Assembly (NCBI GenBank): GCA_051294905.1
Contig: CM119372.1
Location: 28,522,001-28,586,000, forward strand
DNA length: 64,000 nucleotides
DNA from: Botryllus schlosseri
Lineage: Eukaryota
Direction of reading: 5' to 3'
Under the pieces are notes generated by a model. That model made no database searches. It saw only the letters and a program-made list of their open reading frames with translations, and was not told the origin of the DNA. Each line of letters opens with the position of its first letter. Position 1 is the first letter of the stretch. Of this stretch, positions 8,957 through 64,000 are shown in pieces. The position numbers were made by a program, and so were the translations under genes.

Positions 8957-8984
<28 letters not shown>
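8957..8984. repeat. (AG)n microsatellite
   Basis: Perfect dinucleotide run. Confidence 0.95.
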
Positions 8985-8988
<4 letters not shown>

Positions 8989-33787: not shown

Positions 33788-36700
33788 AGTAGTTAGAGAA
33801 ATGTGCGGAAGGTGCCCATTCGCGATTTATAAAGAACAAACAAACATTATCAAGATAATAAACAGTGTAAGAATTAGCTCATTCTCAGTTTTGCAGCAAT
33901 ACTCGAGGGGAATTCCCTTCTGACTGTGCGGCAATAGGGGGGACTGAGAGAAAACGAACAAAGAATCTGGATTGACCTTTGTACTGGAGTCATTCTACTT
34001 GTACTTTTCCACTCCTTACCTCGCTTGATCTCTGGACACGAGACTTGTGTATTGAGTATTTATTATATTTTCCCTCGAATAACAATGGATCGGCTTTTAA
34101 TTTCAATGGTATGCACGCCGACGATACGCTCGGCTGGGCAAAGCGACGTCCACAGCCTGTGTCATACTGGACTCGTAACAACCTCGCTCGACCTCTGGTC
34201 AAGGACATGAAATTACAGCTGACTCCGGTCATACGCGACGGGGCTTGGTAATAGTTGCCTGACGACATATCGTCCTGACCTATCGTTTTGTGGTCCAATT
34301 TCGTGACGTGTCTTGGGAATAATTCCCCGTCAAACCCCCTGGCTGACTTGTCGTCCCGTGGTTGACTCGATTTCATGTACGGTGGGGCATGGGAATAATT
34401 GCCGGTGCTGACTTCGGTCGTGTACGACGGGGCTTGACCATAGTTGCCGGCCCTGACCTGTCATTCCGTGGTCCAATTTCGTGGCTCGGGAACAATAGAG
34501 CGTCAAGCTGGTTGACTTGTCGTTCCGCGATTGATTCAATTTCGTGTACGGTGGGTCATAATTACCGGTCGTGACGTCAGTATAGTTTCTTCTGATCCAT
34601 GAGATCCTGGTGCGTGTTTTAGGTGTCCATACGTTCGGCTATGTAAAGTGACGCTTGTGGTCTGTGTCTTGTGTACTGTTGTACTTGAACCCTTTTTTAC
34701 TTTGTTATCGACCCAGACAGTAACGAGAAACGATCTGTTACGATTATAAATATGTATACCATTTCGAGTCATATCGAGAATGAGAATGAATGTCGTAGTA
34801 GAAATGTGTATTAGGCGACCCGACATAGATTAACTTAAATAAATTAGCATTATAAATACAATAAGTAATTGAGCAAATAGCTGATTCTCAATTTTGCTCG
34901 CATCAACATGTTAACCCCTGGTATTACGTACCTAGTAATCGGCGCAAGCAACAAATGTGGCTGTTCCATACCTATACCTCGTTCTAGCGTATTCATAAGG
35001 ACAGACAGTCCCGAGTAAAACAATGTATTTATGATGGGTTCTTTTTACTCCTTCACGGTTGGTCAAGCGTAATCATCCCGGTGTCTGCAAATGATATTCA
35101 ATTTACCACGGGATATTAATTTTGTATGCTGTACATGATATACAACTTGAATCGAACTGTTGGCGAACTAATGCTTTGCCCGTCTGTAACATACACATAT
35201 CGATCACGAGCTCACCACGCACTTGCAGTTCGAGGGCGACTCATTTCGCTGCAGACAATCAGTTGTGTTCGCGTGTATCGTAACATATCCTCAACACTTG
35301 TTATGGCAACACCTCCACGCATATTTACAATATCATACTAAGGAACTATTGCTTCGGCAGCCACGCCCTATCGCTCGAAGTCGACAAATTTCGCTACAGA
35401 CAGTCAGTTGTGTTCACGTATGTGTCGTAAATATATCCTCAACACATGCTATGCCAATACCTCCAAGCATATTTGCATCATACTTAGGGTTCTGGTTTAA
35501 ATCAGGCTGATTTAAATCATCACGTGTCGACAATCGATCGAAGCCCGTCAACTGGTATTTTGAAAGCTCCCGGTATGGTGTATTATTGTGTATGGATTGT
35601 TGCGGTATTAGAATTGTGGTTACGGCTCGTTGGCGGTGCGAGGATCAGGTTTATAGTATACTATAACTACTTAGCTCGGATATTATACGACGCGCTGCTA
35701 TCGGTGCTTTGTCCAAGACCTAATTCACGATAATCAATCTCGCTGTCGAAAATGACATGCGGCCGCGTAGACTGCATAGCGCCATTTTGTTTTGTGATCC
35801 ATCCTGCTGTGCCGAGGATCGAAACATATCCTCAACACATGTTATGCCAACACCTCCAAGCATATTTGCAGCATCATACTACGGATATATTGACTCGGCA
35901 GAGTGTTACCGTCAGAGAATTGCTGTGTCACGCCTTCGGGCCTTGTATTTTCCGCTCGGTAACTGCGAGTACGATGTTATTTCAATTGTCCGCGAAACGA
36001 ATCGGGGTAGCTCGCTTCATCGGGGTGGACTGACCTTATTTGGCTGAAACGCGCTCGGTGGTGCAATAATGGGAATGAATTGTGACAGATCATACCTGAT
36101 ACGATCTATAGCCTGAGGTGAGGTGTAAAGTAGAGGGGGAGATTTCGAAATCGGAATCCACTGCGACTATAGGGTTGCTAAATCAAAGTCCAAAAAATCC
36201 GGCTGGCTCGTAAAGTCCTGTTATTTCCATATGTTGTGAGGGTAAAATATAGCATAAATCCGACTCTCAGGGCCATTTGGCCGCATCCAGACTGGCTTCG
36301 CTGAAAACTGATGAAATCTGCCCCGGGTCCGGAGATGTTTCGTGACCTCCTCCGTCCAGACAAGATTGTTCTGCTGTAATATAGGTGTCGTTGTATAATA
36401 ATTTACGTACAAGGAGACTTGGTATCGACCCTTTGGCGGAATTCTGTTTGGTTCGTCTGTACAGGTGTTATTAGTGCGACCAGATTTGGCACCTCGAGAA
36501 GGATATTGGTAAAAACCGTATCACACAACGAGGACAATAACTTTACCGGTCAACAATGTACGTAAATCAGCTGTGTTCAATCGAGCGTGACACAATCGAT
36601 GTCAGCCATCAATCTGCGGCTTGATAAAACCCGCGTTTTCGGGTTGACAGCAACACAATGCGATCCATTCGATATCACTATCGACCCTCCTATTTTAATA

Positions 36701-39700
36701 TAGGGTTACCATGAGGCCTCCTTTAGGGGAGCATATGTCCTCCATTTCCCAGATATGTCACCCAATTCACCCAAATGTACTCTCTTTCTGTCAGTTTGTC
36801 CTCCTTGTTAGCTCAACATCTCCAAAAAAGCACCACGAGTAACGCAAAATGTGGGCCTAGATTACAAAAGTCGGGTACGTGGCCAAATCGGAAAAATGAC
36901 GCTATGATGGTATTGTGCAGGCTATTACGTGGATACGGGGGCCTGTGTAAACATGTGAATAGTAAAAGCGCTCCAAACTACCGTGAAAAAAGATCGAGCG
37001 CATTAGACCATGTCGGGGCCACCTTAGTACAGTCAAATGATCCCATGTCGTATCGAGAATAGCCGGGGCGGTGGTGGTACATCATTCTCACAAGATGTAC
37101 TTTGGAATGCGTGTGAAATCGTCTTCGTCCGCTACTCGACTAAAGCAGAATATAGCTTTGAAGTACTCAAGTAGCTTTAAAAGAAATGTCGTGAAATCGC
37201 TTTCTATCCTAATGATAAAGAGTAGGCCCCCCATAAATCTATCGAGCCAAAATGTAGTTTCAAAGCAATCCAGTAATTTGTAAATCTTACGGGTTGAACG
37301 GTGTGTTCATTGACTAGAGAGAAGGAGACACGACGGTGCCTGTATAACAAGGCTGTTCTCAAACCGACATTGTCTTCGTTATTATCGGCGAGATATGGCT
37401 TTGCAGTGACATTGCGGTCGGTAAAATACATTGATTAAATACGATTTATCCCTCGTATATGGGGATCAATGGGCGAATAATGTATCGATTCAGCAATTCG
37501 GCATGCCAAGTACTTAATTTTCTCCGGCCCGCCGACCGAAGGAGTTGCCCGCCCCCCTTGTATAACACATATGTAGATGATACAATAGCGACAGCTAGCG
37601 GTTGTCAATCATCCATAAAAATACTAACCAGTAATACAGCCCTCAAGGAAAACAACAATCCGGGGAGATACGTCAAGTGTATTTCAGATACATCGTCTGT
37701 AGACCTCCAATTGCGGAGAACACTGGAGCAGCTGAAGCACTGTGTTCTGTCTAGGTCACCGAGATAAAGCTTGTTTTGCCAACTCGCCGACCGTCCGTGG
37801 TATGGGATAGCTGGGTCATTTCTCAAAGGTTCAGTACTCTCCGTATTTTGAGGTTATTGCACAATCTATCTCTAATATGCTGTAATATAGACAGGTCCAG
37901 ACTTGTCTATTCACTTCCGTAGACTGACCTTTATAACACATTTTACACAATTAAATACACATGTTCAGTTTATTTGAAGTAATAACGGGCAAGCACATTA
38001 ACTAATCGTCCAGAACAAGGTGTAGAGCTTCTTTCAGATCTTGGCATACTTTCTTGATATCAGAATCTTTTTTTTGATTTGCGATGTAAAAGCAATACCA
38101 GCTTCGCATACATGAGCATATGATTGCGTATAAACCGATATTGAAGTCTTCTGAGAGCATCTTCATTATTCTCCAGTCTACACAATATTATTTTCCTCTT
38201 AGTACGTTATGTCTCTCAATCCAACAGTACAGTTGAATTGCTATTCGAAGGTATCTGATACAGACAACTGTAAACTAATTCTTTAAGTTTGTTCATCGTA
38301 GCGTAACGACCATTTTTACGAATCCATAACTGTATCATTTGATATCGTTGCTCAGTTAAGGTATAGCAATCCATGTATTGGCATTCGGCAATTTCATTGT
38401 CAGATAGCTCAAGTTTTTCACGTGCAAACCTATACCAGTTCATCGGGTCAATCCGATCCATTATGACGTATATATCACTAGCAGTAATCTTGGACATATT
38501 CGATCTATAGTGTACAGCGAATAATCATGTAATAAATATTACACGTTATATATTGCCTTGCACTCGGTTCAACTACAATAACAAATAAGGCGATCAACTT
38601 ACGCAATAATGACGTAATCATATCTCAGCGTTACTGAAACCAAGCAAAGCCGCTCTCGTAATAACTAGAGTAATCAACTATACGCAATCATAATGACGTA
38701 ATCATTACTGCACATGCTTGAACTGCAATACGCAATCATAATGAAGAATATATACGTATATATCAATTTCTGCAACTTTTTAATTTTGCTCGCACTGTAC
38801 ACGATTTCATGTATATAAATGTTTTGATTATTAGGCACCCTTCCTTCACAAAAATACGCATCATTTATGAGAGTAGGGATCTAAGCGTTGGCCATTACCA
38901 CGCCAAGAGGTAAGAAGACATATGAAGTTTGGGCCAACATGGGCCTCATAGAAGAGTGCCAAAAAGATCGTCAGCGAGAAAACATGGGTCGAAAAGGATT
39001 GCCCTTATGTTGACCGTAAACTTCGATATAAATGTATTTGTATGGGTGTCTAAAGTGCTGGCACCGAATAATTATGTCGTGGTAATCTGGACCCCACAGG
39101 GCAACTGACATCCCACCCCGAATTATTATTTAACAGTGAAGAAATACCAATTTTGAATCGTGCGCTTCTTTTAGTTTAGTAGTCTGTGTATAGGCGAGTT
39201 CAATATCTTTTGATTACATACCGCACATGGGAAGTCGGACTGAGAGGATACAAAATTTATAGCAATATACACGCAATTATCAATATTATTGACCTAATCA
39301 ATCATTAATTATACAGTCATTTCACCAGGTCCACGTGGTCGCATCTGAATGGAGACCGGATAGGTCAAAAGTGCTACATTCGGTCAAAGTGGCGAACATA
39401 CCGCCTGGTTATCAAGTGTTTTTATGTATGATCGACCCCCACTGTCTAGCGAGACGAGCAGGATTTTGGTGTCTGATTATTAATGTCGTAAGAGTGTGGT
39501 AAATCCATTTACAAACTACTTTACACATTTCAAAATCCCAACACCCGAAAAGTAAGTAGCTAAAACGGTTGAAGCGGAGGTAGTCTGAAACACAACGACT
39601 CATATAGCACAGATGGACAAATCCTAATCGAGTACATCGGATAGAGTTGCATCCTTGAAATCGTTATTTCCTCAACAAATCGATACAAGAATGGATCTGC

Positions 39701-40087
39701 ATGGGAATAAACATGAATATGTTCTGATGACACTCGTTATGGAAAGCTAAATTCGCCTGCCCCACATCCCCAACAGAACATATTGACAATTAATATCAGC
39801 CATATACTACAGAAATACCCATTTACTCGAATGGTACCATGTCTGAAATACTGTAGTGTAGGCGAATCAGCGTCTACTGATCCTGACAGTCACCGTTTAA
39901 ACAGGTTTTTGCCGGGTCAACTGTGATCGGACACGGTTCATCCGCTACTTGCAGACTTATACGCGCGGGGGGTTGAAAAAAAAAATGGCTCGGATGCTAT
40001 GTCAGCTCAGGGCGACAATTCGAAGTTTTAAACGATACGGTTGGTACGTAAAGCCTCGTTATTCCCGCGTATTGTGAGGGTAAAACC
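33788..40087 (+). repeat. Element 1 left arm (6300 bp)
   Basis: Reverse complement of 42213-48512. Mirrored coordinates sum to 82300/82301, and mirrored ORFs differ at only a few residues. Confidence 0.97.
38216..38497 (-). CDS. Intronless death-domain-only protein (93 aa), left-arm copy
   Basis: Death-domain pattern: I..RI...W..FAR.KL.LSD.EI.......LTEQ.YQMIQLW..KNG..AT...L.E. Protein identical to the copy at 43804-44085. Confidence 0.8.
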   Translation of the reverse strand: MSKITASDIYVIMDRIDPMNWYRFAREKLELSDNEIAECQYMDCYTLTEQRYQMIQLWIRKNGRYATMNKLKELVYSCLYQIPSNSNSTVLLD

Positions 40088-40729
40088 GATGCTAAAATAA
40101 GTCGTTGGAAGGGTATACCGAAAGCCTCTTTGCACTGCGGGTGAACTTATCGCATAGCATTTCACAGCTCTGCGGCGTAATTTAACTGTCTAGCGCTGTG
40201 GACGGTCCATTTTGTCTGCTAATTGGGGGCCATAAACGACCGAGTGAAACAAATAGTTTGGGGTATATGCGGATATGATTAGGAAACAACACGCTGAATG
40301 ACTTGGGAATCTCAACTCGACAAAGGATCGTCGCGACGGGGGACCTGCAAAAACGTCCCAGACACCCTGAATCCCGCTAATGTAGGCGCTGACAGAGCAT
40401 AATTTTCCCTGCTACGGGTGTAATCTAGATAAAGCATGATTTTTTCCTATATGTCTGTAATCTATATAAAGCATAGTGCTCCCTAGATACCAGGCGTGGG
40501 GGATCACGAATCACCAAGTGTTTTTATACATTGAGAAATGATCGAGCTATTTTTATACCCGAGGTAGTCATTCAGAGACATGCAGGCTTATTCGTATAGA
40601 CTCTCTATAGTGTAGCATCTATCTGATTCGGGGATAAGTAAATGCTTTGTCCACGCTCAAACTGAGGATGCTTTGAATTTGTATCTTACTCATGTTATTA
40701 TTCACCCTCCAGGAAATATTTATAGTACG

Positions 40730-41236
40730 ATGGAGTCTAATAAATGCCGTATTTGTGCGCGGGAATTCACAAGAAAATGCAACCTCAAAAGTCATTTACT
40801 ATGGCACACTGGTGTTAAAGAACATGAATGCTTGATATGCGGACGATGGTTTCTTGCCAAACAGAACCTACATGCCCATTTGGCTGTACACTCGGGGGTG
40901 AAACCGTACGATTGTGAAGTATGTGGTCGTTTTTTTGCCCGAAAATACACCATGGAAGTCCATTTGGCCACACATACTGGCGTAGAAAGATTCGAGTGTG
41001 GGGTGTGTGGTAAGCTTCTGTCGGGGAAGAATGGGCTGAAAAAACACCTAGAAACACACTTTGGAATTGGAAAATACTCGTGTCAGGTGTGTGGGAGACT
41101 GTTTCCTCACCAATGCGGGTTAGAAACTCACCTCCAGGCTCCCGTGGGACTGAGAAAATATCCATGCGGTGTTTGCGGTAAAGCTTTTGGTTCGCAAGCA
41201 AATCTTCACAGACACGAGACTACTCCCTTTGTGTGA
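40730..41236 (+). CDS. Tandem C2H2 zinc-finger protein (168 aa from ATG 40730); four canonical fingers plus two lacking the last His
   Basis: Repeats of CxxCx3Fx5Lx2Hx3H with TGVKEHE / SGVKPYD / TGVERFE linkers. AATAAA at ~41265. Possible acceptor CCCTCCAG just upstream. Confidence 0.9.
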   Translation: MESNKCRICAREFTRKCNLKSHLLWHTGVKEHECLICGRWFLAKQNLHAHLAVHSGVKPYDCEVCGRFFARKYTMEVHLATHTGVERFECGVCGKLLSGKNGLKKHLETHFGIGKYSCQVCGRLFPHQCGLETHLQAPVGLRKYPCGVCGKAFGSQANLHRHETTPFV

Positions 41237-43559
41237 GCCGATCGTATTTCAATATGAGTGTACCAATAAATATTTTTTTCGCGTCTGTATAATTCTGTGT
41301 TGTTTGTCCGAGGCTTCTATGTTGGTGTTTTAATCATTTAGTGGGGGCAGAGATAAAAGAGTCGATATTACAATAGACACGACTCGTCCTAGTCGAGTAT
41401 TAGAAACCACCATGAAAGCAGGTCAACTTTATGTGACAGTTTTGATAACACCAATACTACAAAATACCATTTATCGTCTGACGGTGAAAGATGGGGATTT
41501 GCGAATAGGGGCTGGTTGCAATACCACACGAGTAAATACACAGAGAGAGTCTTTATTTTAAACAAACCAAAATACGTAACAAACGGCAGTGATGGTGGTA
41601 CAGAAAATATACTTTGCACAGTATTCGGTACTAGATGGGAATGATCGACAAGACCGTGAAGGTCATCTAGTCTGATCACACAGTGTAAAGAGGCTTTCGG
41701 TATACCCTTCCGAAACGTATAGTTACGGGGCATGGACGGGCGCCCGGGAGACATACCTTATTAGTAATTTTACCGTACGACTTATTTTAGCATCGGGTGA
41801 TTTTAATACCCTTTCGAAGATGTCGTGTTTTATTTGACGAAGTCAGAGGTTTGTTTCACACGGTGTGATTACGAGTGATAAATTGTAAACATAATAGCAC
41901 ACAGCAGCTGACGGGTCGCGGTGCGGGACAATAAAGACGGTTACCGTGCGAGACGTACAAGCCACCATAACTACACAGAGGTCGTCAGCAATGCCGCTAC
42001 TTTTTTCCGGGTACTCGATTCTGTCTACTCGCACTGCACCAAGTTATCAATGTGGCTAGCCTTCTTTAGGAAGCCACTTACTTTTACTAGTTTATAAAAG
42101 TTTAGCGACCCCCTCCGTATCATGCGACGATAGCTGGAGCTGTTAGGCTTGACTAGAGTTGACCACGATTCGGGCACGCATTTTCATCGGCTCGATGTGG
42201 AACTGTCTTAAAGGTTTTACCCTCACAATACGCGGGAATAACGAGGCTTTACGTACCAACCGTATCGTTTAAAACTTCGAATTGTCGCCCTGAGCTGACA
42301 TAGCATCCGAGCCATTTTTTTTTTCAACCCCCCGCGCGTATAAGTCTGCAAGTAGCGGATGAACCGTGTCCGATCACAGTTGACCCGGCAAAAACCTGTT
42401 TAAACGGTGACTGTCAGGATCAGTAGACGCTGATTCGCCTACACTACAGTATTTCAGACATGGTACCATTCGAGTAAATGGGTATTTCTGTAGTATATGG
42501 CTGATATTAATTGTCAATATGTTCTGTTGGGGATGTGGGGCAGGCGAATTTAGCTTTCCATAACGAGTGTCATCAGAACATATTCATGTTTATTCCCATG
42601 CAGATCCATTCTTGTATCGATTTGTTGAGGAAATAACGATTTCAAGGATGCAACTCTATCCGATGTACTCGATTAGGATTTGTCCATCTGTGCTATATGA
42701 GTCGTTGTGTTTCTGACTACCTCCGCTTCAACCGTTTTAGCTACTTACTTTTCGGGTGTTGGGATTTTGAAATGTGTAAAGTAGTTTGTAAATGGATTTA
42801 CCACACTCTTACGACATTATTAATCAGACACCAAAATCCTGCTCGTCTCGCTAGACAGTGGGGGTCGATCATACATAAAAACACTTGATAACCAGGCGGT
42901 ATGTTCGCCACTTTGACCGAATGTAGCACTTTTGACCTATCCGGTCTCCATTCAGATGCGACCACGTGGACCTGGTGAAATGACTGTATAATTAATGATT
43001 GATTAGGTCAATAATATTGATAATTGCGTGTATATTGCTATAAATTTTGTATCCTTTCAGTCCGACTTCCCATGTGCGGTATGTAATCAAAAGATATTGA
43101 ACTCGCCTATACACAGACTACTAAACTAAAAGAAGCGCACGATTCAAAATTGGTATTTCTTCACTGTTAAATAATAATTCGGGGTGGGATGTCAGTTGCC
43201 CTGTGGGGTCCAGATTACCACGACATAATTATTCGGTGCCAGCACTTTAGACACCCATACAAATACATTTATATCGAAGTTTACGGTCAACATAAGGGCA
43301 ATCCTTTTCGACCCATGTTTTCTCGCTGACGATCTTTTTGGCACTCTTCTATGAGGCCCATGTTGGCCCAAACTTCATATGTCTTCTTACCTCTTGGCGT
43401 GGTAATGGCCAACGCTTAGATTCCTACTCTCATAAATGATGCGTATTTTTTGTGAAGGAAGGGTGCCTAATAATCAAAACATTTATCTACATGAAATCGT
43501 GTACAGTGCGAGCAAAATTAAAAAGTTGCAGAAATTGATATATACGTATATATTCTTCA

Positions 43560-43755
43560 TTATGATTGCGTATTGCAGTTCAAGCATGTGCAGTAATGAT
43601 TACGTCATTATGATTGCGTATAGTTGATTACTCTAGTTATTACGAGAGCGGCTTTGCTTGGTTTCAGTAACGCTGAGATATGATTACGTCATTATTGCGT
43701 AAGTTGATCGCCTTATTTGTTATTGTAGTTGAACCGAGTGCAAGGCAATATATAA
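43560..43755 (+). promoter_or_regulatory. Putative promoter of the death-domain gene: clustered bZIP-type sites plus TATA (mirrored at ~38546-38741)
   Basis: GATTACGTCAT x2 (43598, 43682), ATTGCGTA x3 (43565, 43613, 43694) and TATATAA at 43749-43755, ~50 bp before ATG 43804. Confidence 0.55.
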
Positions 43756-43803
43756 CGTGTAATATTTATTACATGATTATTCGCTGTACACTATAGATCG
43801 AAT

Positions 43804-44085
43804 ATGTCCAAGATTACTGCTAGTGATATATACGTCATAATGGATCGGATTGACCCGATGAACTGGTATAGGTTTGCACGTGAAAAACTTGAGCTATCTG
43901 ACAATGAAATTGCCGAATGCCAATACATGGATTGCTATACCTTAACTGAGCAACGATATCAAATGATACAGTTATGGATTCGTAAAAATGGTCGTTACGC
44001 TACGATGAACAAACTTAAAGAATTAGTTTACAGTTGTCTGTATCAGATACCTTCGAATAGCAATTCAACTGTTCTGTTGGATTGA
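43804..44085 (+). CDS. Intronless death-domain-only protein (93 aa), right-arm copy
   Basis: Death-domain pattern as in the left copy; upstream TATA; downstream AATAAA at 44327-44332. Confidence 0.8.
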   Translation: MSKITASDIYVIMDRIDPMNWYRFAREKLELSDNEIAECQYMDCYTLTEQRYQMIQLWIRKNGRYATMNKLKELVYSCLYQIPSNSNSTVLLD

Positions 44086-47000
44086 GAGACATAACGTACT
44101 AAGAGGAAAATAATATTGTGTAGACTGGAGAATAATGAAGATGCTCTCAGAAGACTTCAATATCGGTTTATACGCAATCATATGCTCATGTATGCGAAGC
44201 TGGTATTGCTTTTACTTCGCAAATCAAAAAAAAGATTCTGATATCAAGAAAGTATGCCAAGATCTGAAAGAAGCTCTACACCTTGTTCTGGACGATTAGT
44301 TAATGTGCTTGCCCGTTATTACTTCAAATAAACTGAACATGTGTATTTAATTGTGTAAAATGTGTTATAAAGGTCAGTCTACGGAAGTGAATAGACAAGT
44401 CTGGACCTGTCTATATTACAGCATATTAGAGATAGATTGTGCAATAACCTCAAAATACGGAGAGTACTGAACCTTTGAGAAATGACCCAGCTATCCCATA
44501 CCACGGACCGTCGGCGAGTTGGCAAAACAAGCTTTATCTCGGTGACCTAGACAGAACACAGTGCTTCAGCTGCTCCAGTGTTCTCCGCAATTGGAGGTCT
44601 ACAGACGATGTATCTGAAATACACTTGACGTATCTCCCCGGATTGTTGTTTTCCTTGAGGGCTGTATTACTGGTTAGTATTTTTATGGATGATTGACAAC
44701 CGCTAGCTGTCGCTATTGTATCATCTACATATGTGTTATACAAGGGGGGCGGGCAACTCCTTCGGTCGGCGGGCCGGAGAAAATTAAGTACTTGGCATGC
44801 CGAATTGCTGAATCGATACATTATTCGCCCATTGATCCCCATATACGAGGGATAAATCGTATTTAATCAATGTATTTTACCGACCGCAATGTCACTGCAA
44901 AGCCATATCTCGCCGATAATAACGAAGACAATGTCGGTTTGAGAACAGCCTTGTTATACAGGCACCGTCGTGTCTCCTTCTCTCTAGTCAATGAACACAC
45001 CGTTCAACCCGTAAGATTTACAAATTACTGGATTGCTTTGAAACTACATTTTGGCTCGATAGATTTATGGGGGGCCTACTCTTTATCATTAGGATAGAAA
45101 GCGATTTCACGACATTTCTTTTAAAGCTACTTGAGTACTTCAAAGCTATATTCTGCTTTAGTCGAGTAGCGGACGAAGACGATTTCACACGCATTCCAAA
45201 GTACATCTTGTGAGAATGATGTACCACCACCGCCCCGGCTATTCTCGATACGACATGGGATCATTTGACTGTACTAAGGTGGCCCCGACATGGTCTAATG
45301 CGCTCGATCTTTTTTCACGGTAGTTTGGAGCGCTTTTACTATTCACATGTTTACACAGGCCCCGTATCCACGTAATAGCCTGCACAATACCATCATAGCG
45401 TCATTTTTCCGATTTGGCCACGTACCCGACTTTTGTAATCTAGGCCCACATTTTGCGTTACTCGTGGTGCTTTTTTGGAGATGTTGAGCTAACGAGGAGG
45501 ACAAACTGACAGAAAGAGAGTACATTTGGGTGAATTGGGTGACATATCTGGGAAATGGAGGACATATGCTCCCCTAAAGGAGGCCTCATGGAAACCCTAT
45601 ATTAAAATAGGAGGGTCGATAGTGATATCGAATGGATCGCATTGTGTTGCTGTCAACCCGAAAACGCGGGTTTTATCAAGCCGCAGATTGATGGCTGACA
45701 TCGATTGTGTCACGCTCGATTGAACACAGCTGATTTACGTACATTGTTGACCGGTAAAGTTATTGTCCTCGTTGTGTGATACGGTTTTTACCAATATCCT
45801 CCTCGAGGTGCCAAATCTGGTCGCACTAATAACACCTGTACAGACGAACCAAACAGAATTCCGCCAAAGGGTCGATACCAAGTCTCCTTGTACGTAAATT
45901 ATTATACAACGACACCTATATTACAGCAGAACAATCTTGTCTGGACGGAGGAGGTCACGAAACATCTCCGGACCCGGGGCAGATTTCATCAGTTTTCAGC
46001 GAAGCCAGTCTGGATGCGGCCAAATGGCCCTGAGAGTCGGATTTATGCTATATTTTACCCTCACAACATATGGAAATAACAGGACTTTACGAGCCAGCCG
46101 GATTTTTTGGACTTTGATTTAGCAACCCTATAGTCGCAGTGGATTCCGATTTCGAAATCTCCCCCTCTACTTTACACCTCACCTCAGGCTATAGATCGTA
46201 TCAGGTATGATCTGTCACAATTCATTCCCATTATTGCACCACCGAGCGCGTTTCAGCCAAATAAGGTCAGTCCACCCCGATGAAGCGAGCTACCCCGATT
46301 CGTTTCGCGGACAATTGAAATAACATCGTACTCGCAGTTACCGAGCGGAAAATACAAGGCCCGAAGGCGTGACACAGCAATTCTCTGACGGTAACACTCT
46401 GCCGAGTCAATATATCCGTAGTATGATGCTGCAAATATGCTTGGAGGTGTTGGCATAACATGTGTTGAGGATATGTTTCGATCCTCGGCACAGCAGGATG
46501 GATCACAAAACAAAATGGCGCTATGCAGTCTACGCGGCCGCATGTCATTTTCGACAGCGAGATTGATTATCGTGAATTAGGTCTTGGACAAAGCACCGAT
46601 AGCAGCGCGTCGTATAATATCCGAGCTAAGTAGTTATAGTATACTATAAACCTGATCCTCGCACCGCCAACGAGCCGTAACCACAATTCTAATACCGCAA
46701 CAATCCATACACAATAATACACCATACCGGGAGCTTTCAAAATACCAGTTGACGGGCTTCGATCGATTGTCGACACGTGATGATTTAAATCAGCCTGATT
46801 TAAACCAGAACCCTAAGTATGATGCAAATATGCTTGGAGGTATTGGCATAGCATGTGTTGAGGATATATTTACGACACATACGTGAACACAACTGACTGT
46901 CTGTAGCGAAATTTGTCGACTTCGAGCGATAGGGCGTGGCTGCCGAAGCAATAGTTCCTTAGTATGATATTGTAAATATGCGTGGAGGTGTTGCCATAAC

Positions 47001-50815: not shown

Positions 50816-50852
50816 AGTAGTTATATAGATCGGTGACACATTGGCGTTGTGG

Positions 50853-51100: not shown

Positions 51101-51333
51101 ATGTGGTCGTGATTCGTACTTTCGGGTATATACATCTCTCGACTGGTGTTGAATATGTATCGAGTAAATAGTCATGTGAATGAATCTTTGTTAATGTGTA
51201 TATCGTAAATTATTATATATGATGTAGTTTAGTCGTGACAAATGACCGACCGTGTTCTAAGTCTTTCCTCTCTATTGATTGCTAGCTGAATAATACTTCA
51301 GATCGGGTTTTTCGCACCTTGTATACCGCTGTT

Positions 51334-54300
51334 TCGCACCTACAGAATAGTCTGCTGTTCACAGTCGTGACTTCACCGCGATAGCACAATATTCGCAGGT
51401 AATATTTCCGCAATAAGTTTGTCACAGAGCCGTCGCACAATATCCACGTTCACAAACTAACACTCCAAAAAGGTGTGAAATATTGGTAAAATCCCACGAT
51501 CGCTCACAAGATAATACCTAAGACATAACCATCGCTTGCGACTCTTTGTTACGTACATGCCGATCGTTGACAATGTAATATTTTGGTAATTGGTTTGCCA
51601 CAGAGCCGGCGTAGACGGTGATTCAAATATCAACAATAGCCGCGTTCACAAACCAACACTACAAAAACGGGTGAAATAGGTTACAAATCCCACGATCGCT
51701 CACAAGATAACACCAAAGACATCACCATTTCTCGCGTCTTGTCATTACATACATCCCAATCGCTACAGTGTAATGTGTCGATGGTTGTTACTATCAAGTA
51801 ATAAGTAATGAATAACAGTACCAGCGCAGACCGTGATTCGAAAACCAACAATTTGACACTTGCCCGCGGTCGCTATATGTTTCATGCCTCTCGAATAGTG
51901 GCTGACTTTAGTTGCGTGATAAGATCCATGAAAATATTCAATCAATGCGTTAGTTTGTCAACTTGAAATGTAACTCACTACACAGATCAAGTTGAATCGT
52001 ATTTGAATGTATTGACTCGACCCAACTCAAATCCTTTGACAAATCCTATTAACGCAATCTGTTGAATCGAACGTAACCTGAATATTACTGACACCAACAT
52101 TCACCCACATCGGATCATTCACACATTCCACGCCGCTGTTTTAACAGTTATAGAATCAATACCAACTATCTCTAACCCGATAATATTCAATCATTTTGGT
52201 AATTTAACAACTGTAAACCCATTCGCGGATGTACTAAAGGTAAATCCAGATAATCCAAAATGAAATATTTGGACTTTGACATAGTCTGAATTGAAATAGA
52301 TTGACAAACATGACTAACAACTTTCAACCCAGTCATATTTAGAGATTATACACACATTGATTCGAAACAAGTAATGAAACATTACAACTCTATTCGCGAT
52401 CCGGCTTTTCAATTGCCAAAGCGACATTTTAACAACTTATCATACTCAAAAGAATTATTCACAACATTAACAAGTGTTAAATATCTAGTTTTCACTTACT
52501 TGATTATATCACAACAACTCACAAACTTGAATTAATTCATCCTGGTTGTATTCATATGACCGATAATTTTTTATTCAACTGTAAAGGTCGTTACTATTCT
52601 GAAGACAAAGTATTTACTAGTCGGTGCATATACGACTTGACATAAACATATTATATTTTGAGTATACGAGATTTGAATGTCTGAACAATAACTGAGAAAT
52701 AATTTATCACAATAAAATCCGTATATTACAGCGTAAAAGATGTTTGAATGTCAGCAACTCTGTACGGTCATAGTTACTACCACTAATTTACCCGACCAAC
52801 TCGTCATGATCATTCCTGAAATCAACACAAATATGACCACTGACTTGAGTTAACCACAAAACAGCATCAAGTTTTAAATCCACTTGTAGCTTACGGATTA
52901 TTTGAATGCTGGTTATGTTTTGTTGTAATTGAGTTAACGAAATAGTATTACGTCTCGACATCTTACCATCTTACCATATTCAAAGAATCAACCACGAAAA
53001 CATTGTCAAGTAAATCCGTTAACCGACCAACTCAAACAGTATCAATACGAAAAACAAACAAACATACACGAATCCATACCATCACTAAAACCTAAAATCC
53101 ATAACAAACTCGGTTGTATTCATATCCCAACGCATCTTTTTTATTCAACTTGAAAAGTCGTCACTATTCTGTAAGATAGAGGAATTACTATGCGGTATAT
53201 TTTATAAGATAAAAGTAATTACTTCTCGGTGCCCGCGACTTGAGATTAACATAATATGTTTGAGTATGCGAGATTTGAAAGTCTGCCCAACATATTGAGA
53301 ATTCATTTCTTACAATCGAACGCAGGTGTTATATTGAAAATTATCATGATGTAAACATAAGGATTGACACATTGATTTGACATATGTAATAGTTGATCAT
53401 GACTTGACTATTAAATTATTTGCGGTAATTAGACCCGGCGTTGTGGTAAAGATTATTGTGACAGCAACAAACTTTTCAGTACCATTGTTATTAACATATT
53501 GAGTTGTAAACTATGTGTGTCTAAAATGTTCTCGATTGGAAAATTATTCAGCCTTGGTACAAACCACGCAGAGTATTGTGGATATCAGGAAATATTTTAC
53601 AAATGTCTGCATTAAACAAGACTAAAGATGAAACAACAATTTCCTTTGTTGAACAATAACCGGGGCAATACTTTATTGTCGGTGAGAATTGAAACACTTT
53701 CGCGCATTACCTGGTGTCAAGATATCACACTAGGTGAATTGACATACCACCATTTGATTAATGCTTAATCCGTTCGCATCATTTCACACTCACTTTGATC
53801 ATTACAAAAGTAAATTGGAATATGTTTGCTAGGCACCACCTATTCAACTATACTTGAGTAATACAGAAACCTCTCAGCATTAATAAAATCGAAATGTGCG
53901 CTACACTGAAATCTACAAAAATGTGTTTGTATTGCTGTTCGTAGTAGCGATATCGATTTGAACCTCCATCATCTAACCAAACTACTGAGAGTCGTTGTCA
54001 ATTTACATGACGTTCACTGATTACATACTAGAACTATTTGTGCAGCGCACACGATCAGAGAAATTGGACATTTTTCCATTGCCATTCGTCAAAGTAAATG
54101 TCGTCACAATAATCAGTCACTAAAAGACCATATACTTGTATGTGATTGAATCGCCGACAATTAACTCGGTAAATCAAACCTCTGAGAAATTTCACTCAGT
54201 CATTGGATAGGAAACAGCGTCGCTTAATCGGTGTGAGTCGTTTTTTCTAAATACTAATCATATCTGTCCAGCCAAGAACAATTTTCACTCACTTGGGTAA

Positions 54301-57198
54301 CGAAACCAGTGTCCAATATCAATACAAGATATTTTCGTCACACAAAAATAATCAACTTCACTCGACATTCCCGTACTACGAAACTGTACAAAGGTTACAT
54401 GCTTTTGTATGACATGGAATCAATAGCGATCGAAGTAACCGTATTGGAGATAACTTTTAAACAAACACACTCTACGTGGTTAACATTCTCGTCGATTCTA
54501 TTGTGATTAATGTATACTTCATGTGATCTGGATTCATTTCGATATGGCTAAACATTCAACCTCGACGGATACGAATTGTCACACACTCAAGTAATATCAT
54601 ACCAAATAGTTATTTACAAGACACAGAAATTTGTTTTGGTCGTTTCGACTTTATTACTGGAGATACTCATCACTTCGCTTAATACAATCTAGATTTAAAC
54701 TCCATCGAACCTTTGGTGTCTATCGTTTTGCTGGATACGAATTATGTTAGTCTAAGAGTACACAATTTTCACTATCTTGGGTTATGAACTCAGTGTGTTA
54801 GCGATCATTCAATATTTTGTGGTATCAACTAGCTACTTCGTAGGATACGAATGATCATCCTCACAACTCTTACAAAAGTACGAAGGATATTTACATCACA
54901 CAAAGTAATCGACTTTACTCGATATCCTCACACTACGAAACTGAATGGTTATGGTTTGACTCTACAAACTGTTCTGATGTCACAAGAACTTTTTCATACG
55001 AATGGTTACGTATCTAAATATTCAAATAATCCAACACACGACTATAGCACTTACTGAAATATCATAGTTCTTGTAACAAGTTGTATAAGTATAATGTTTA
55101 TCGTAAGTCCTACATAGCCATGATATCCGTCCGAGTTTGACTTTTAGAAACCATTATACCGACATCGCGACATCTTTCAAAATTAAAACCACGGTGACTG
55201 CTTCAGAGACCTACCAATGAAATTGCAGTATTACAGTTACTTCCACAAAAGAGTATGTATTCGACTTACTTACCACAAATCTAACGCACAAAACAATTTA
55301 CTTTACTAACGAGAAGCACCGAGCCTCACATCAAAACAACTAGAAAGTGGAACTATATTAAAAAACGTCGCTAACCTTTGTGCACCAGCTGTAAATCACA
55401 CAAGCAACATGTTTCAAGATTCTGGTTATTGAAAAACGTTAAAGTGTTTCTCCTGCACCAAGTCGTTATGTTGACGAAAGTGTATATTGTAATACCATGA
55501 TCGATTTGCATTCGTTGGTCACAAACTGTCACTACTCCAAAAAATTATTTTTCACTCAAACACAAAAGCATACTTGTCGCCAATCGTTTTCATCAAGCAC
55601 GAGTTCAAGAAACCTGCTACGACATGAATTGTTATTTTGATGTTGTGTAAATAGGTAATAATTTATTTTAGTAACACTACATCAACATCATCGAGTTGTG
55701 CGAATAGATTTACATGTGGTTTTAATCGAAGTACACAGCACGGTCTAATGTAGATTCATCTCTATTGTACAGCAACTCGGTAATCGAAATGCATTAACAT
55801 TTAAACAACGATCTTGGTTCGTCACGCGAAAAATATCTTTACTGTCGCAACACTCTGATACTCTGCACAAGATGTGTAAATCCTTTTCACACTCATAATA
55901 ATACACTAACGGGATACCGATGTCAAGCAACAACGTTTAACAACATCACTGACACTGAACATACGATACCTACCCAAGTAAAAATATCATTTTCACCAGG
56001 AGGTCAGTCGTTACTTGTGTACAATTAACATTTTCCCTTGGGAGTTTAGCGTTACCCGAGTAACAAACCCATTTTCACTTGGAAATATATGTTTTCCCTC
56101 AACAACAAACGTTTTTCACTTGGAAATATATTTTTTCCCTGGGTAACAAACCCCTTTTCACTTGGAAATATATTTTTGCCCTGGATAACAAACCTTTTTC
56201 ACTTGGAAATATATTTTTTCTCTTGGTAACAAACCTTTTTCACTTGGAAATATATTTTTTCTCTGGGTAACAAACCTTTTTCACTTGGGAATATATTTTT
56301 TCCCCGATCAACAAACCTTTTTCACTTGGAAATATATTTTTTCCCCGAGCAACAAACCATTTTCACTGAGCAACAAACCCTTTTCTCCCCAGGCAACAAA
56401 CCCTTTTCGTTTGGAAAACTATCATTTACCTGAGTACCAATACCATTTTCGTTTTGAAAACTGACAACTACACCGGTCAATTTGATATTTTTTGTATATT
56501 GTTACAGCAGATAGTGACAAAATATACACCAACAACGACTCCGATACATTTGTGTAATCAAATATTCACTTGCTCTGATGCATCCCATCAAAATCATTGG
56601 TTACTCACATACAATAACAATGAGCTGTTGTACACCGAAATGCACGCTTTGGAAAATTGGACAATAGGCTGCGATAGTTCTGCGATGTCCGGGTTCGTGC
56701 TTTGGATTTTCCAGAGTCAAAATGTCTGAATAAAACACCTCCTCGACGATGGTTGGTATGTGGATAACGGTGTTCGGAAAACGGTTGGATTTATGTCACC
56801 CATCGCGATAACAATTCCTGGTCGAGTTTTCCTCCGGCATGTTTACTATATTGTGTCTTTATTGGTCAATGTATGTCTCGACATTCAGTTTGAAATCGGA
56901 AATGATAAAGTACGTAACCGGATCCGGATATCAACTCTGAATCGATAAACCAATGAACAATATTCAAAGTAAACATGTTACACCTGTGTTTCCACGAAAA
57001 AATACCATCCAGACATACGTCGCGCTTGTTTGCCCACACCAGTATACGCGCAAATGGAGGTGTGTGACATTGCATGCAATGTGTTGGTATACAAACATCG
57101 ATCCACAGACATTATCATAGCCGGTAATTTTGATGTAGATCGAATGTCACCCGATAACAATGTCATACCAATAAGCCACATTGCAATGACTCTGAGTC
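51334..57198 (+). repeat. Element 2 left arm (portion whose mirror is visible)
   Basis: Reverse complement of 58135-64000. Confidence 0.97.
56062..56460 (+). repeat. 41-bp minisatellite, ~8 copies plus degenerate tail
   Basis: Unit AACAAACCTTTTTCACTTGGAAATATATTTTTTCCCTGGGT; CACTTGG recurs at 56076, 56117, 56159, 56200, 56241, 56282, 56323. Confidence 0.95.
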
Positions 57199-58134
57199 CG
57201 CGCTATTACATCGATATTTCGACACCGTTCACTGATTTACTCGATGGTGTTATCGTGTTGCAACATTACAAGATAGTCATGACCCTATCTCCGGACAGAC
57301 GTCCCAGATCAATTGGATACATAGGTCAATATCCATCGTGTTGTCGAGACCGAAGTTTTCCGCTGAGACTGCAGCGTTTCACCAATGTGAACTATCGAAG
57401 TACGGTGCTCGAAATGATTGTGATCAGTCTTTCAGTCACGATGCAAGGATGTCGCTACTCCAGCATAACGACTCCAGATAAATATCGTGAACAGTGATTC
57501 TGAAAATCTCGGACTGATACTGTGATCCAATAAGGTATGTTTCTGTGGAATGAAGACTGCAATCGTACACCACAATAGAACACTACCTCGCGATTTCACA
57601 CACAATCATAAAACACATCATCGTAAGGGTCCAGTTCGTCCGGTAACATTTCGAAACGGTCATCGCCACAAGAGATCGGGTTGGTCTCGTCGTATCGGTA
57701 GCATTTTGACACTGCCATCACCACAAGGCTATTGACGTCGTTTCGGTTGGTCATGTCAATCCGTTTTACAATTTACCGTTTTTCAACTCCCCGCACCATA
57801 CTGTTACGACACAGACAAGAAGCATCGGTGGAAATAATAAAACACGGAAGGCACACTTTGGTGGTATTTGACATGGATTTTACACCAGACGAACCTCACA
57901 TTCGAGCGATGTATTGGAATGACGCCTGTATTATCGATGTCGAAGGAACAGAAATGTATCGATTTATTGGTTTCGTACATATCCAACAAAAACCAGGGTA
58001 TATGATTGTGCATGGTTCGCATATTCGAATGTGAACGCCCAATTGGTATATGTTGTATAGTTCACTTTCACCATCGTGCGAATAACCCATGTTACGGGTC
58101 CATGTTTGTGTGTCTGTATGTCATGCTTCAGATT

Positions 58135-61100
58135 GACTCAGAGTCATTGCAATGTGGCTTATTGGTATGACATTGTTATCGGGTGACATTCGATCTACAT
58201 CAAAATTACCGGCTATGATAATGTCTGTGGATCGATGTTTGTATACCAACACATTGCACGCAATGTCACACACCTCCATTTGCGCGTATACTGGTGTGGG
58301 CAAACAAGCGCGACGTATGTCTGGATGGTATTTTTTCGTGGAAACACAGGTGTAACATGTTTACTTTGAATATTGTTCATTGGTTTATCGATTCAGAGTT
58401 GATATCCGGATCCGGTTACGTACTTTATCATTTCCGATTTCAAACTGAATGTCGAGACATACATTGACCAATAAAGACACAATATAGTAAACATGCCGGA
58501 GGAAAACTCGACCAGGAATTGTTATCGCGATGGGTGACATAAATCCAACCGTTTTCCGAACACCGTTATCCACATACCAACCATCGTCGAGGAGGTGTTT
58601 TATTCAGACATTTTGACTCTGGAAAATCCAAAGCACGAACCCGGACATCGCAGAACTATCGCAGCCTATTGTCCAATTTTCCAAAGCGTGCATTTCGGTG
58701 TACAACAGCTCATTGTTATTGTATGTGAGTAACCAATGATTTTGATGGGATGCATCAGAGCAAGTGAATATTTGATTACACAAATGTATCGGAGTCGTTG
58801 TTGGTGTATATTTTGTCACTATCTGCTGTAACAATATACAAAAAATATCAAATTGACCGGTGTAGTTGTCAGTTTTCAAAACGAAAATGGTATTGGTACT
58901 CAGGTAAATGATAGTTTTCCAAACGAAAAGGGTTTGTTGCCTGGGGAGAAAAGGGTTTGTTGCTCAGTGAAAATGGTTTGTTGCTCGGGGAAAAAATATA
59001 TTTCCAAGTGAAAAAGGTTTGTTGATCGGGGAAAAAAATATATTCCCAAGTGAAAAAGGTTTGTTACCCAGAGAAAAAATATATTTCCAAGTGAAAAAGG
59101 TTTGTTACCAAGAGAAAAAATATATTTCCAAGTGAAAAAGGTTTGTTATCCAGGGCAAAAATATATTTCCAAGTGAAAAGGGGTTTGTTACCCAGGGAAA
59201 AAATATATTTCCAAGTGAAAAACGTTTGTTGTTGAGGGAAAACATATATTTCCAAGTGAAAATGGGTTTGTTACTCGGGTAACGCTAAACTCCCAAGGGA
59301 AAATGTTAATTGTACACAAGTAACGACTGACCTCCTGGTGAAAATGATATTTTTACTTGGGTAGGTATCGTATGTTCAGTGTCAGTGATGTTGTTAAACG
59401 TTGTTGCTTGACATCGGTATCCCGTTAGTGTATTATTATGAGTGTGAAAAGGATTTACACATCTTGTGCAGAGTATCAGAGTGTTGCGACAGTAAAGATA
59501 TTTTTCGCGTGACGAACCAAGATCGTTGTTTAAATGTTAATGCATTTCGATTACCGAGTTGCTGTACAATAGAGATGAATCTACATTAGACCGTGCTGTG
59601 TACTTCGATTAAAACCACATGTAAATCTATTCGCACAACTCGTTGATGTTGATGTAGTGTTACTAAAATAAATTATTACCTATTTACACAACATCAAAAT
59701 AACAATTCATGTCGTAGCAGGTTTCTTGAACTCGTGCTTGATGAAAACGATTGGCGACAAGTATGCTTTTGTGTTTGAGTGAAAAATAATTTTTTGGAGT
59801 AGTGACAGTTTGTGACCAACGAATGCAAATCGATCATGGTATTACAATATACACTTTCGTCAACATAACGACTTGGTGCAGGAGAAACACTTTAACGTTT
59901 TTCAATAACCAGAATCTTGAAACATGTTGCTTGTGTGATTTACAGCTGGTGCACAAAGGTTAGCGACGTTTTTTAATATAGTTCCACTTTCTAGTTGTTT
60001 TGATGTGAGGCTCGGTGCTTCTCGTTAGTAAAGTAAATTGTTTTGTGCGTTAGATTTGTGGTAAGTAAGTCGAATACATACTCTTTTGTGGAAGTAACTG
60101 TAATACTGCAATTTCATTGGTAGGTCTCTGAAGCAGTCACCGTGGTTTTAATTTTGAAAGATGTCGCGATGTCGGTATAATGGTTTCTAAAAGTCAAACT
60201 CGGACGGATATCATGGCTATGTAGGACTTACGATAAACATTATACTTATACAACTTGTTACAAGAACTATGATATTTCAGTAAGTGCTATAGTCGTGTGT
60301 TGGATTATTTGAATATTTAGATACGTAACCATTCGTATGAAAAAGTTCTTGTGACATCAGAACAGTTTGTAGAGTCAAACCATAACCATTCAGTTTCGTA
60401 GTGTGAGGATATCGAGTAAAGTCGATTACTTTGTGTGATGTAAATATCCTTCGTACTTTTGTAAGAGTTGTGAGGATGATCATTCGTATCCTACGAAGTA
60501 GCTAGTTGATACCACAAAATATTGAATGATCGCTAACACACTGAGTTCATAACCCAAGATAGTGAAAATTGTGTACTCTTAGACTAACATAATTCGTATC
60601 CAGCAAAACGATAGACACCAAAGGTTCGATGGAGTTTAAATCTAGATTGTATCAAGCGAAGTGATGAGTATCTCCAGTAATAAAGTCGAAACGACCAAAA
60701 CAAATTTCTGTGTCTTGTAAATAACTATTTGGTATGATATTACTTGAGTGTGTGACAATTCGTATCCGTCGAGGTTGAATGTTTAGCCATATCGAAATGA
60801 ATCCAGATCACATGAAGTATACATTAATCACAATAGAATCGACGAGAATGTTAACCACGTAGAGTGTGTTTGTTTAAAAGTTATCTCCAATACGGTTACT
60901 TCGATCGCTATTGATTCCATGTCATACAAAAGCATGTAACCTTTGTACAGTTTCGTAGTACGGGAATGTCGAGTGAAGTTGATTATTTTTGTGTGACGAA
61001 AATATCTTGTATTGATATTGGACACTGGTTTCGTTACCCAAGTGAGTGAAAATTGTTCTTGGCTGGACAGATATGATTAGTATTTAGAAAAAACGACTCA

Positions 61101-64000
61101 CACCGATTAAGCGACGCTGTTTCCTATCCAATGACTGAGTGAAATTTCTCAGAGGTTTGATTTACCGAGTTAATTGTCGGCGATTCAATCACATACAAGT
61201 ATATGGTCTTTTAGTGACTGATTATTGTGACGACATTTACTTTGACGAATGGCAATGGAAAAATGTCCAATTTCTCTGATCGTGTGCGCTGCACAAATAG
61301 TTCTAGTATGTAATCAGTGAACGTCATGTAAATTGACAACGACTCTCAGTAGTTTGGTTAGATGATGGAGGTTCAAATCGATATCGCTACTACGAACAGC
61401 AATACAAACACATTTTTGTAGATTTCAGTGTAGCGCACATTTCGATTTTATTAATGCTGAGAGGTTTCTGTATTACTCAAGTATAGTTGAATAGGTGGTG
61501 CCTAGCAAACATATTCCAATTTACTTTTGTAATGATCAAAGTGAGTGTGAAATGATGCGAACGGATTAAGCATTAATCAAATGGTGGTATGTCAATTCAC
61601 CTAGTGTGATATCTTGACACCAGGTAATGCGCGAAAGTGTTTCAATTCTCACCGACAATAAAGTATTGCCCCGGTTATTGTTCAACAAAGGAAATTGTTG
61701 TTTCATCTTTAGTCTTGTTTAATGCAGACATTTGTAAAATATTTCCTGATATCCACAATACTCTGCGTGGTTTGTACCAAGGCTGAATAATTTTCCAATC
61801 GAGAACATTTTAGACACACATAGTTTACAACTCAATATGTTAATAACAATGGTACTGAAAAGTTTGTTGCTGTCACAATAATCTTTACCACAACGCCGGG
61901 TCTAATTACCGCAAATAATTTAATAGTCAAGTCATGATCAACTATTACATATGTCAAATCAATGTGTCAATCCTTATGTTTACATCATGATAATTTTCAA
62001 TATAACACCTGCGTTCGATTGTAAGAAATGAATTCTCAATATGTTGGGCAGACTTTCAAATCTCGCATACTCAAACATATTATGTTAATCTCAAGTCGCG
62101 GGCACCGAGAAGTAATTACTTTTATCTTATAAAATATACCGCATAGTAATTCCTCTATCTTACAGAATAGTGACGACTTTTCAAGTTGAATAAAAAAGAT
62201 GCGTTGGGATATGAATACAACCGAGTTTGTTATGGATTTTAGGTTTTAGTGATGGTATGGATTCGTGTATGTTTGTTTGTTTTTCGTATTGATACTGTTT
62301 GAGTTGGTCGGTTAACGGATTTACTTGACAATGTTTTCGTGGTTGATTCTTTGAATATGGTAAGATGGTAAGATGTCGAGACGTAATACTATTTCGTTAA
62401 CTCAATTACAACAAAACATAACCAGCATTCAAATAATCCGTAAGCTACAAGTGGATTTAAAACTTGATGCTGTTTTGTGGTTAACTCAAGTCAGTGGTCA
62501 TATTTGTGTTGATTTCAGGAATGATCATGACGAGTTGGTCGGGTAAATTAGTGGTAGTAACTATGACCGTACAGAGTTGCTGACATTCAAACATCTTTTA
62601 CGCTGTAATATACGGATTTTATTGTGATAAATTATTTCTCAGTTATTGTTCAGACATTCAAATCTCGTATACTCAAAATATAATATGTTTATGTCAAGTC
62701 GTATATGCACCGACTAGTAAATACTTTGTCTTCAGAATAGTAACGACCTTTACAGTTGAATAAAAAATTATCGGTCATATGAATACAACCAGGATGAATT
62801 AATTCAAGTTTGTGAGTTGTTGTGATATAATCAAGTAAGTGAAAACTAGATATTTAACACTTGTTAATGTTGTGAATAATTCTTTTGAGTATGATAAGTT
62901 GTTAAAATGTCGCTTTGGCAATTGAAAAGCCGGATCGCGAATAGAGTTGTAATGTTTCATTACTTGTTTCGAATCAATGTGTGTATAATCTCTAAATATG
63001 ACTGGGTTGAAAGTTGTTAGTCATGTTTGTCAATCTATTTCAATTCAGACTATGTCAAAGTCCAAATATTTCATTTTGGATTATCTGGATTTACCTTTAG
63101 TACATCCGCGAATGGGTTTACAGTTGGTAAATTACCAAAATGATTGAATATTATCGGGTTAGAGATAGTTGGTATTGATTCTATAACTGTTAAAACAGCG
63201 GCGTGGAATGTGTGAATGATCCGATGTGGGTGAATGTTGGTGTCAGTAATATTCAGGTTACGTTCGATTCAACAGATTGCGTTAATAGGATTTGTCAAAG
63301 GATTTGAGTTGGGTCGAGTCAATACATTCAAATACGATTCAACTTGATCTGTGTAGTGAGTTACATTTCAAGTTGACAAACTAACGCATTGATTGAATAT
63401 TTTCATGGATCTTATCACGCAACTAAAGTCAGCCACTATTCGAGAGGCATGAAACATATAGCGACCGCGGGCAAGTGTCAAATTGTTGGTTTTCGAATCA
63501 CGGTCTGCGCTGGTACTGTTATTCATTACTTATTACTTGATAGTAACAACCATCGACACATTACACTGTAGCGATTGGGATGTATGTAATGACAAGACGC
63601 GAGAAATGGTGATGTCTTTGGTGTTATCTTGTGAGCGATCGTGGGATTTGTAACCTATTTCACCCGTTTTTGTAGTGTTGGTTTGTGAACGCGGCTATTG
63701 TTGATATTTGAATCACCGTCTACGCCGGCTCTGTGGCAAACCAATTACCAAAATATTACATTGTCAACGATCGGCATGTATGTAACAAAGAGTCGCAAGC
63801 GATGGTTATGTCTTAGGTATTATCTTGTGAGCGATCGTGGGATTTTACCAATATTTCACACCTTTTTGGAGTGTTAGTTTGTGAACGTGGATATTGTGCG
63901 ACGGCTCTGTGACAAACTTATTGCGGAAATATTACCTGCGAATATTGTGCTATCGCGGTGAAGTCACGACTGTGAACAGCAGACTATTCTGTAGGTGCGA
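58135..64000 (-). repeat. Element 2 right arm (truncated by the window end)
   Basis: Reverse complement of 51334-57198. Confidence 0.97.
58874..59272 (-). repeat. 41-bp minisatellite, mirror copy
   Basis: Reverse complement of 56062-56460. Confidence 0.95.

Follow-up and report, generated by a model that had tools for sequence, protein, structure and literature searches.

How two almost wholly palindromic elements with no recognised gene for their own movement come to have the ends of Polintons (Mavericks) is the question raised by a stretch of 64,000 nucleotides of Botryllus schlosseri DNA (GenBank assembly GCA_051294905.1, contig CM119372.1, positions 28,522,001 to 28,586,000 of the forward strand), called here the window and numbered from its first letter. 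The two elements, A and B, combine a palindromic build with Polinton ends and the absence of core genes, A is flanked by an integrase-type 6-bp target-site duplication (TSD), and the arms of an element are more alike than its copies are to each other. The explanation regarded here as probable, with considerable doubt left to it, is that A belongs to one family and B to another, both made up of non-autonomous Polinton/Maverick derivatives that arose by copy-back synthesis and depend on a helper to spread.

Polinton-ended palindromes without core genes

Element A occupies positions 33788-48512 (14,725 bp), as delimited by self-alignment and by an AGTAGT start and an ACTACT end. Its left arm (33788..40087, + strand) starts with AGTAGT and is 99.7% the reverse complement of the right arm (42213..48512, - strand), which ends in ACTACT and is continuous with the unique centre of 2,125 bp (40088..42212, from self-alignment). 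The arms, of 6,300 bp each, show 19 differences, 17 substitutions and 2 indels. The hexamer TCCATG stands before the left arm (33782..33787, + strand) and again after the right one (48513..48518, + strand). The host site is itself a host repeat, of which uninterrupted copies at 31263-31376 and 26988-27114 hold the hexamer once, a 6-bp gap being required in the comparison if both hexamers around A are kept; since the hexamer is single in both of these empty-site paralogues, the duplication was made by the insertion.

Element B consists of an AT-rich left arm with no recognised gene (50816..57198, + strand), a unique centre of 936 bp (57199..58134, from self-alignment) and a right arm (58135..64000, - strand) that is 99.9% identical to 51334-57198 and is cut by the window end, with its own end predicted near 64,517. 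The visible parts of the arms (51334-57198 and 58135-64000) have 6 differences over 5,866 positions. The AGTAGT at 50816 probably marks the left end, judging from the motif, the GC-rich subterminal tandem repeats with a 32-bp unit at 50847..51112, and the likeness to the end at 49545 of remnant C, an older terminal fragment (48900..49545, - strand) which ends in ACTACT and matches the first 900 bp of B in blocks of 76-84%. The sequence-only reading had described both elements as about 14 kb long, with arms of about 6.3 kb and short centres, and this holds for A, while for B the full size of 13.70 kb with 6,383-bp arms is predicted by extrapolation, the right end and the TSD lying beyond the window. 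In the alignment of A with B, one 14-bp match apart, homology was limited to the eight bases with which both begin, and the two thus appear to be separate lineages that are alike in size.

Set against the Polinton/Maverick pattern, in which the termini are (AGT)2//(ACT)2 or (AG)3//(CT)3, the first of these motifs is found at both ends of A and at the left end of B, and the 6-bp TSD is found in A, with two empty-site paralogues, the right end of B being outside the window. Within the length range of 12.7-24.6 kb, A falls with its 14,725 bp and B with about 13,700 bp if its right arm is complete, whereas the range of about 50-1,500 bp for terminal inverted repeats (TIRs) is exceeded by both (6,300 bp in A, at least 5,866 bp in B). 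Neither polymerase B nor integrase was found in A or B, and the longest stop-free stretch is 206 amino acids (aa) in A and 174 aa in B, so that neither element can encode a polymerase, an integrase or a capsid protein. No core gene was matched by Pfam in the 86 open reading frames (ORFs) of A and the 68 of B, nor in 12 read-through frames, the centre of A and positions 50816-51800 and 56050-58134 of B having been scanned as stop-free ORFs only; capsid proteins, the packaging ATPase and the protease gave no Pfam match in the same ORFs and frames, a heavily decayed remnant being possible. Thus A and B have the ends, the TSD (A) and the size of Polintons but neither their TIR length nor their genes, and they are not autonomous Polintons. 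That they are non-autonomous Polinton-ended palindromes, as had been proposed from the letters alone, is borne out by the ends and TSD of A, the palindromic build and the missing core genes.

The cargo of A is of an accessory kind. Each arm carries a short death-domain-only ORF pointing outward (38213..38497, - strand, and its mirror; Pfam PF00531, E 7.5e-11) and a broken BIR (inhibitor-of-apoptosis) domain with the same break in both arms (37608..37853, - strand; Pfam PF00653, E 8.8e-7, covering no more than profile positions 30-63 of 70). A 99% identical protein to the death-domain ORF exists in a public assembly, among its longer relatives the one that aligns best is a death-domain caspase, and caspases make up six of the ten relatives scanned out of the 19 besides the near-identical one; such a death-domain-only product could serve as a decoy adaptor. 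A decayed caspase domain beside the death domain was looked for, and none was found. The centre holds an intronless C2H2 zinc-finger ORF of 168 aa followed by AATAAA (40730..41236, + strand; Pfam PF13465, E 9e-24), with synonymous changes at four of its six listed variant sites. In about 3% of the reads of an RNA run the mean depth on the zinc-finger bin was below 1, and only 145 of 3,449 placed reads were 99% alike, which gives no information on expression. The earlier suggestion that an accessory end stands in place of the core genes is therefore matched in kind by A, through its death domain, BIR and zinc finger, but not by B, in which no gene was recognised.

In B, an ORF of 147 aa lies over the boundary of left arm and centre (57054..57497, + strand), has no Pfam match and is not shown to be a gene; the single relative it has spans the right junction of another copy, and for that reason its use as evidence that left arm and centre form the parental strand was rejected. 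It bears a weak resemblance (atlas score no higher than 0.84) to endonuclease/exonuclease/phosphatase clusters, and the atlas matches of two B ORFs, reaching at most 0.80 and 0.84, are leads only. A guess from base skew, that the B arm is a decayed leucine-rich-repeat or polymerase gene, was abandoned, as six read-through frames of 51800-56050 gave no Pfam match; no period-3 signal was seen either, in a weak test to which the real zinc-finger ORF gave none as well.

Long modular arms with tandem repeats and the lack of a gene for self-mobility are also features of Foldback-type transposons, and A and B could be long-TIR elements of that sort, moved by an unrelated cut-and-paste transposase and bearing Polinton-like ends by coincidence. 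Foldback and Galileo elements make target duplications of 7-9 bp, whereas that of A is confirmed as 6 bp, and AGTAGT recurs at three separate ends in the window. The cargo of A is, moreover, of a kind reported from adintoviruses (PMC8502044), and a Foldback identity is considered quite improbable.

Independent sequence and multi-copy families

Near-perfect palindromes are a familiar artefact of long-read sequencing, so an assembly error from fold-back reads had to be weighed, the more so as no single aligned record covers the whole of either element. Four of the 24 listed runs were aligned to positions 40088-58134, a span holding each element once. In one of them (X6), a contig begins exactly at the inner arm boundary of A, 42213, and has a depth of 26.5 as against 13 and 12.4 in the centre, the centre thus showing about half the depth of the inner arm. 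In another (X2), the inner arm has a depth of 625 as against 207-321 in four pieces of the centre and 50 in the one remaining piece, which is a copy 94% alike. For B, a protein from an independent assembly spans the junction of right arm and centre with 89% identity. Several findings speak against an artefact, which is therefore held to be very improbable: the 2:1 ratio of arm to centre in an independent run where a contig also breaks off at the boundary, the recurrence of the B junction in the independent assembly, the different flanks, the genuine target duplication and the predominance of substitutions among the arm differences.

The same data bear on abundance and boundaries. Relative to the centre of A, summed depth, which is not a copy number, is 11- to 32-fold in the outer arm of A and 25- to 230-fold in B, and other copies carry arm deletions of 67-804 bp. 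A and B belong to multi-copy families that move as a unit with fixed inner boundaries, as follows from the TSD of A, the depth ratios and the inner boundaries common to other runs.

Arm equalisation and the proposed origin

At the left junction of A (40086..40137), 41777-41796 (20/20) and 41681-41711 (30/31) are mirrored as two short pieces that follow each other in template order; exact inverted matches there reach 25 bp, as against a maximum of 18 among 300 shuffles. These pieces would mean that the strand is continuous through the right arm and the centre and that the left arm was copied, and they fit a nascent strand that folded back with two forward hops. The junction of B gives no information on a template switch. 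Thus, of the proposed copy-back derivation, the resemblance of the A junction to a template switch, the families with fixed inner boundaries and the re-equalised arms are in favour, but later deletions suit A too and B is silent on the point.

Among the 40 best-supported of 845 variant rows, 24 lie in arms, and at 22 of these listed arm variants the two arms have the same letter while most aligned contigs differ; by element, 13 of 15 A-arm sites and all nine B-arm sites (one of the latter a minority variant) are common to both arms, and two of the 24 are private to one arm. The arms of A differ by 17 substitutions in 6,300 positions (0.27%) versus 19 in 2,149 (0.88%) for the six shown X6 pieces from A (Fisher p 4e-4). 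The inner boundaries are common to diverged copies, and hence the palindrome predates the listed variants and its arms have been re-equalised since. The remaining differences between arms are evenly spread (Kolmogorov-Smirnov p 0.94 and 0.80), as expected for drift after insertion.

A purely chromosomal history would dispense with extrachromosomal replication: hairpin-mediated repair would have built the palindromes, gene conversion between arms would have kept them alike, and a Polinton integrase would have excised and reinserted them. Variants and insertions common to both arms are equally expected from conversion, and short templated junction pieces are a known product of chromosomal break repair, so that those of A are at home there too. 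However, the inverted copy ends exactly at the terminus of A and the flanks are those of an ordinary insertion site, diverged copies repeat the same inner boundaries, the two checkable arm differences are private to one arm, and the depth of B above the centre of A suits replicative spread. On this balance the chromosomal history is rated unlikely.

Under the copy-back origin with a helper, an element depleted of genes would be replicated from one of its ends by protein-primed strand displacement. The new strand would fold back and copy the starting end again, giving the order end, centre and inverted end, in A with two short forward hops, while a gene-carrying Polinton would supply the terminal protein, polymerase and integrase in trans. 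In a panhandle or hairpin intermediate the arms would be re-equalised, bringing old insertions and gene lesions into both of them, and after integration they would drift apart evenly. Replication through such an intermediate with helper enzymes would explain together the junction pieces, the variants present in both arms and the even arm differences.

Several results weigh against this origin. The junction pieces of A could also come from later one-sided deletions, arm-to-arm conversion in the chromosome explains the variants in both arms equally well, those variants were selected by their support, and contig depth is not copy number. The hairpin predicted at the inner boundary of B is weak (-1.3 kcal/mol). 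B has no recognisable accessory gene and a codon periodicity not above the flank level, which leaves the terminal motif as the basis for deriving it from a Polinton end. The terminal 20-mer of A was found at 0 loci in viral contigs, and the terminal 20-mer and the tandem unit of B gave 0 and 0 in metagenome contigs; a 19-mer had two loci in viral contigs, with matches of only 16-24 bp that are taken as chance, and of one candidate for the A death-domain protein in viral contigs 0 were confirmed.

Both elements contain repeats. Host repeat or internal duplication makes up 1,574 of 6,300 bp in the arm of A and 1,542 of 6,383 bp in that of B, about a quarter each. In the A arm there are subterminal direct repeats (34218..34581; self-alignment, 70% over about 200 bp), three related blocks of internal duplication (35215..35901; direct repeats of 80-92%), a dispersed repeat piece in both arms (37287..37555; 83% to 32422-32695) and host repeat pieces, again in both arms (38765..39313; 67-83% to 13749-14200, 20029-20188 and four other copies in the window), while the B arm has a 41-bp tandem array (56031..56459). 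The centre of A includes a piece of a high-copy host repeat (41542..41681; 75% to 8981-9090) with very high depth and loose ends at both limits; members of this repeat family end in an AG microsatellite and are plentiful among RNA reads, and the piece has its edge just where the 31-bp mirror piece of A has its inner limit. A 51-bp motif at the inner end of the A arm (40035-40085) recurs, 76% alike, at 36197-36247, 3.8 kb further out, and the inner boundary of the B arm (57179-57198) ends in two adjoining short palindromes (10 bp and 11 bp) that are predicted to be of low stability.

Further pieces lie around the two elements. Remnant C is a third Polinton-like end, about 80% like that of B and situated between A and B; a B-like piece at 31905-32314 brings the number of related pieces inside 33 kb to four. 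At 31522-33104, two inverted copies resembling miniature inverted-repeat transposable elements surround an 860-bp stretch, which joins the B-like piece (83% to 51816-52172) to the A-arm repeat (83% to 37287-37555). A piggyBac-type transposase fragment is found at 23427-23759 (Pfam PF13843, E 1e-17), and a 1.9-kb element with 580-bp inverted arms of 87% identity at 11253-13161.

Element length and known systems

The similar lengths of A and B call for an explanation of their own, for which a size window of the capsid is the leading candidate, though a tentative one that falls short of even chances. A fork-meeting step, as deduced from the replication of adenovirus and phage phi29, allows the same copy-back elements a size independent of capsids: with a switch where opposing forks meet, each arm would be about half a genome and the product would have about the parental length, and limits of the polymerase or integrase and a bias of readers towards large palindromes could add to the effect. 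This account, which competes with the size clause alone, is possible yet rather doubtful. In its favour, there are just two lengths, one of them extrapolated, two random lengths this close being expected in 4%, 10% or 20% of cases under three assumed ranges, and other copies have the arm deletions given above. Against it, half an intact Polinton would hold core genes and the arms of A and B hold none, host repeats and internal duplications fill no less than a quarter of each arm, as though lost length had been made up again, and a similar size has been reached by two unrelated lineages. A wide scatter of lengths, which the sequence-only reading had named as grounds for giving up its idea, was not seen.

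For the packaging or replication limit proposed in the sequence-only reading there are sound precedents. Intact vertebrate Mavericks measure 16.9 +/- 1.7 kb, from which a constrained genome size is inferred by the authors (PMC8097293). By this vertebrate yardstick, the unduplicated units of A (8.4 kb) and B (7.3 kb) come to 50% and 43% of 16.9 kb and the palindromes to 87% and 81%. Adenovirus genomes undergo rearrangement when their length lies under 75% or over 105% of the normal (PMC4189039, PMC12111873), and a 15-kb helper-dependent adenovirus vector was packaged as direct and inverted dimers (PMC4189039). By limits of the adenovirus type, the unduplicated units would be too small and the palindromes would not, so that palindrome formation may rescue half-size derivatives. 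That A and B are natural, germ-line-integrating and helper-dependent satellite genomes of an animal polintovirus, in which half-size units doubled by copy-back were selected because they fill the helper capsid, is an attractive but on present weighing unlikely extension. If it were true, several independent lineages would converge on 13-16 kb, duplicate cell-death cargo and outnumber their helper, and element lengths would be a genomic record of animal Polintons passing through virions.

The wider interest of the palindromes does not depend on that extension. So far the case for protein-primed panhandle replication and virion formation in animal Polintons has been drawn mainly from gene content. 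Re-equalised arms in whole families of near-complete palindromes offer a sequence-level handle on the replication intermediate, and the length distribution of such palindromes is a direct test of a capsid constraint on spread. Palindromes without marker genes escape protein-based surveys, and they duplicate cell-death-related cargo while moving. Searches of the full-text literature turned up no account of Polinton derivatives that are palindromic almost throughout; most subscription papers and the Repbase entries were outside reach, and an earlier description is possible.

Two further systems are related in principle: the symmetric recombinant SYREC of adenovirus 12 is palindromic and of genome length, and in the palindromic amplicons of phi29 one end is inverted and duplicated by a switch of the polymerase to the nascent strand. 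SYREC is, in addition, a helper-dependent replicon that joins a viral end to non-viral filler, as A and B would, but it arose in culture and is no germ-line transposon family (PMC2396429). In the snap-back or copy-back genomes of adeno-associated virus and RNA viruses, likewise, one end is inverted and duplicated when the polymerase switches to the nascent strand; they are usually shorter than the parent, transient and unintegrated, and their interference with the helper was shown (PMC8235507, PMC13506859). The helper-dependent adenovirus vectors offer a parallel in length, being protein-primed linear DNA in which a half-size unit is doubled to about genome length under limits of about 75% and 105%, yet they are laboratory constructs, unintegrated, and with measured packaging (PMC4189039), which for A and B is only inferred.

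Among adintoviruses, IAP homologues are listed with the accessory genes (PMC8502044, section 3.2), to which the broken BIR of A corresponds, but death-domain-only and C2H2 zinc-finger ORFs, both carried by A, are not named in that section. Vertebrate Mavericks/Polintons share with A and B the (AGT)2//(ACT)2 ends, the 6-bp TSD and the size range of 12.7-24.6 kb, and differ (PMC8097293) by TIRs of 46-1,447 bp and eight core ORFs, as opposed to arms of more than 6 kb and no core gene; here the arms make up 86% of A and 93% of B, the length of B being extrapolated. The closest published cases found are the butterfly polintons, with enlarged gene-bearing TIRs of about 2 kb and polB-less relatives that are seemingly still mobile (bioRxiv 10.1101/2025.02.07.637071). 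Their TIRs, however, duplicate core genes (hexon, adenain) in an element that is largely unique, while A and B are nearly all repeat.

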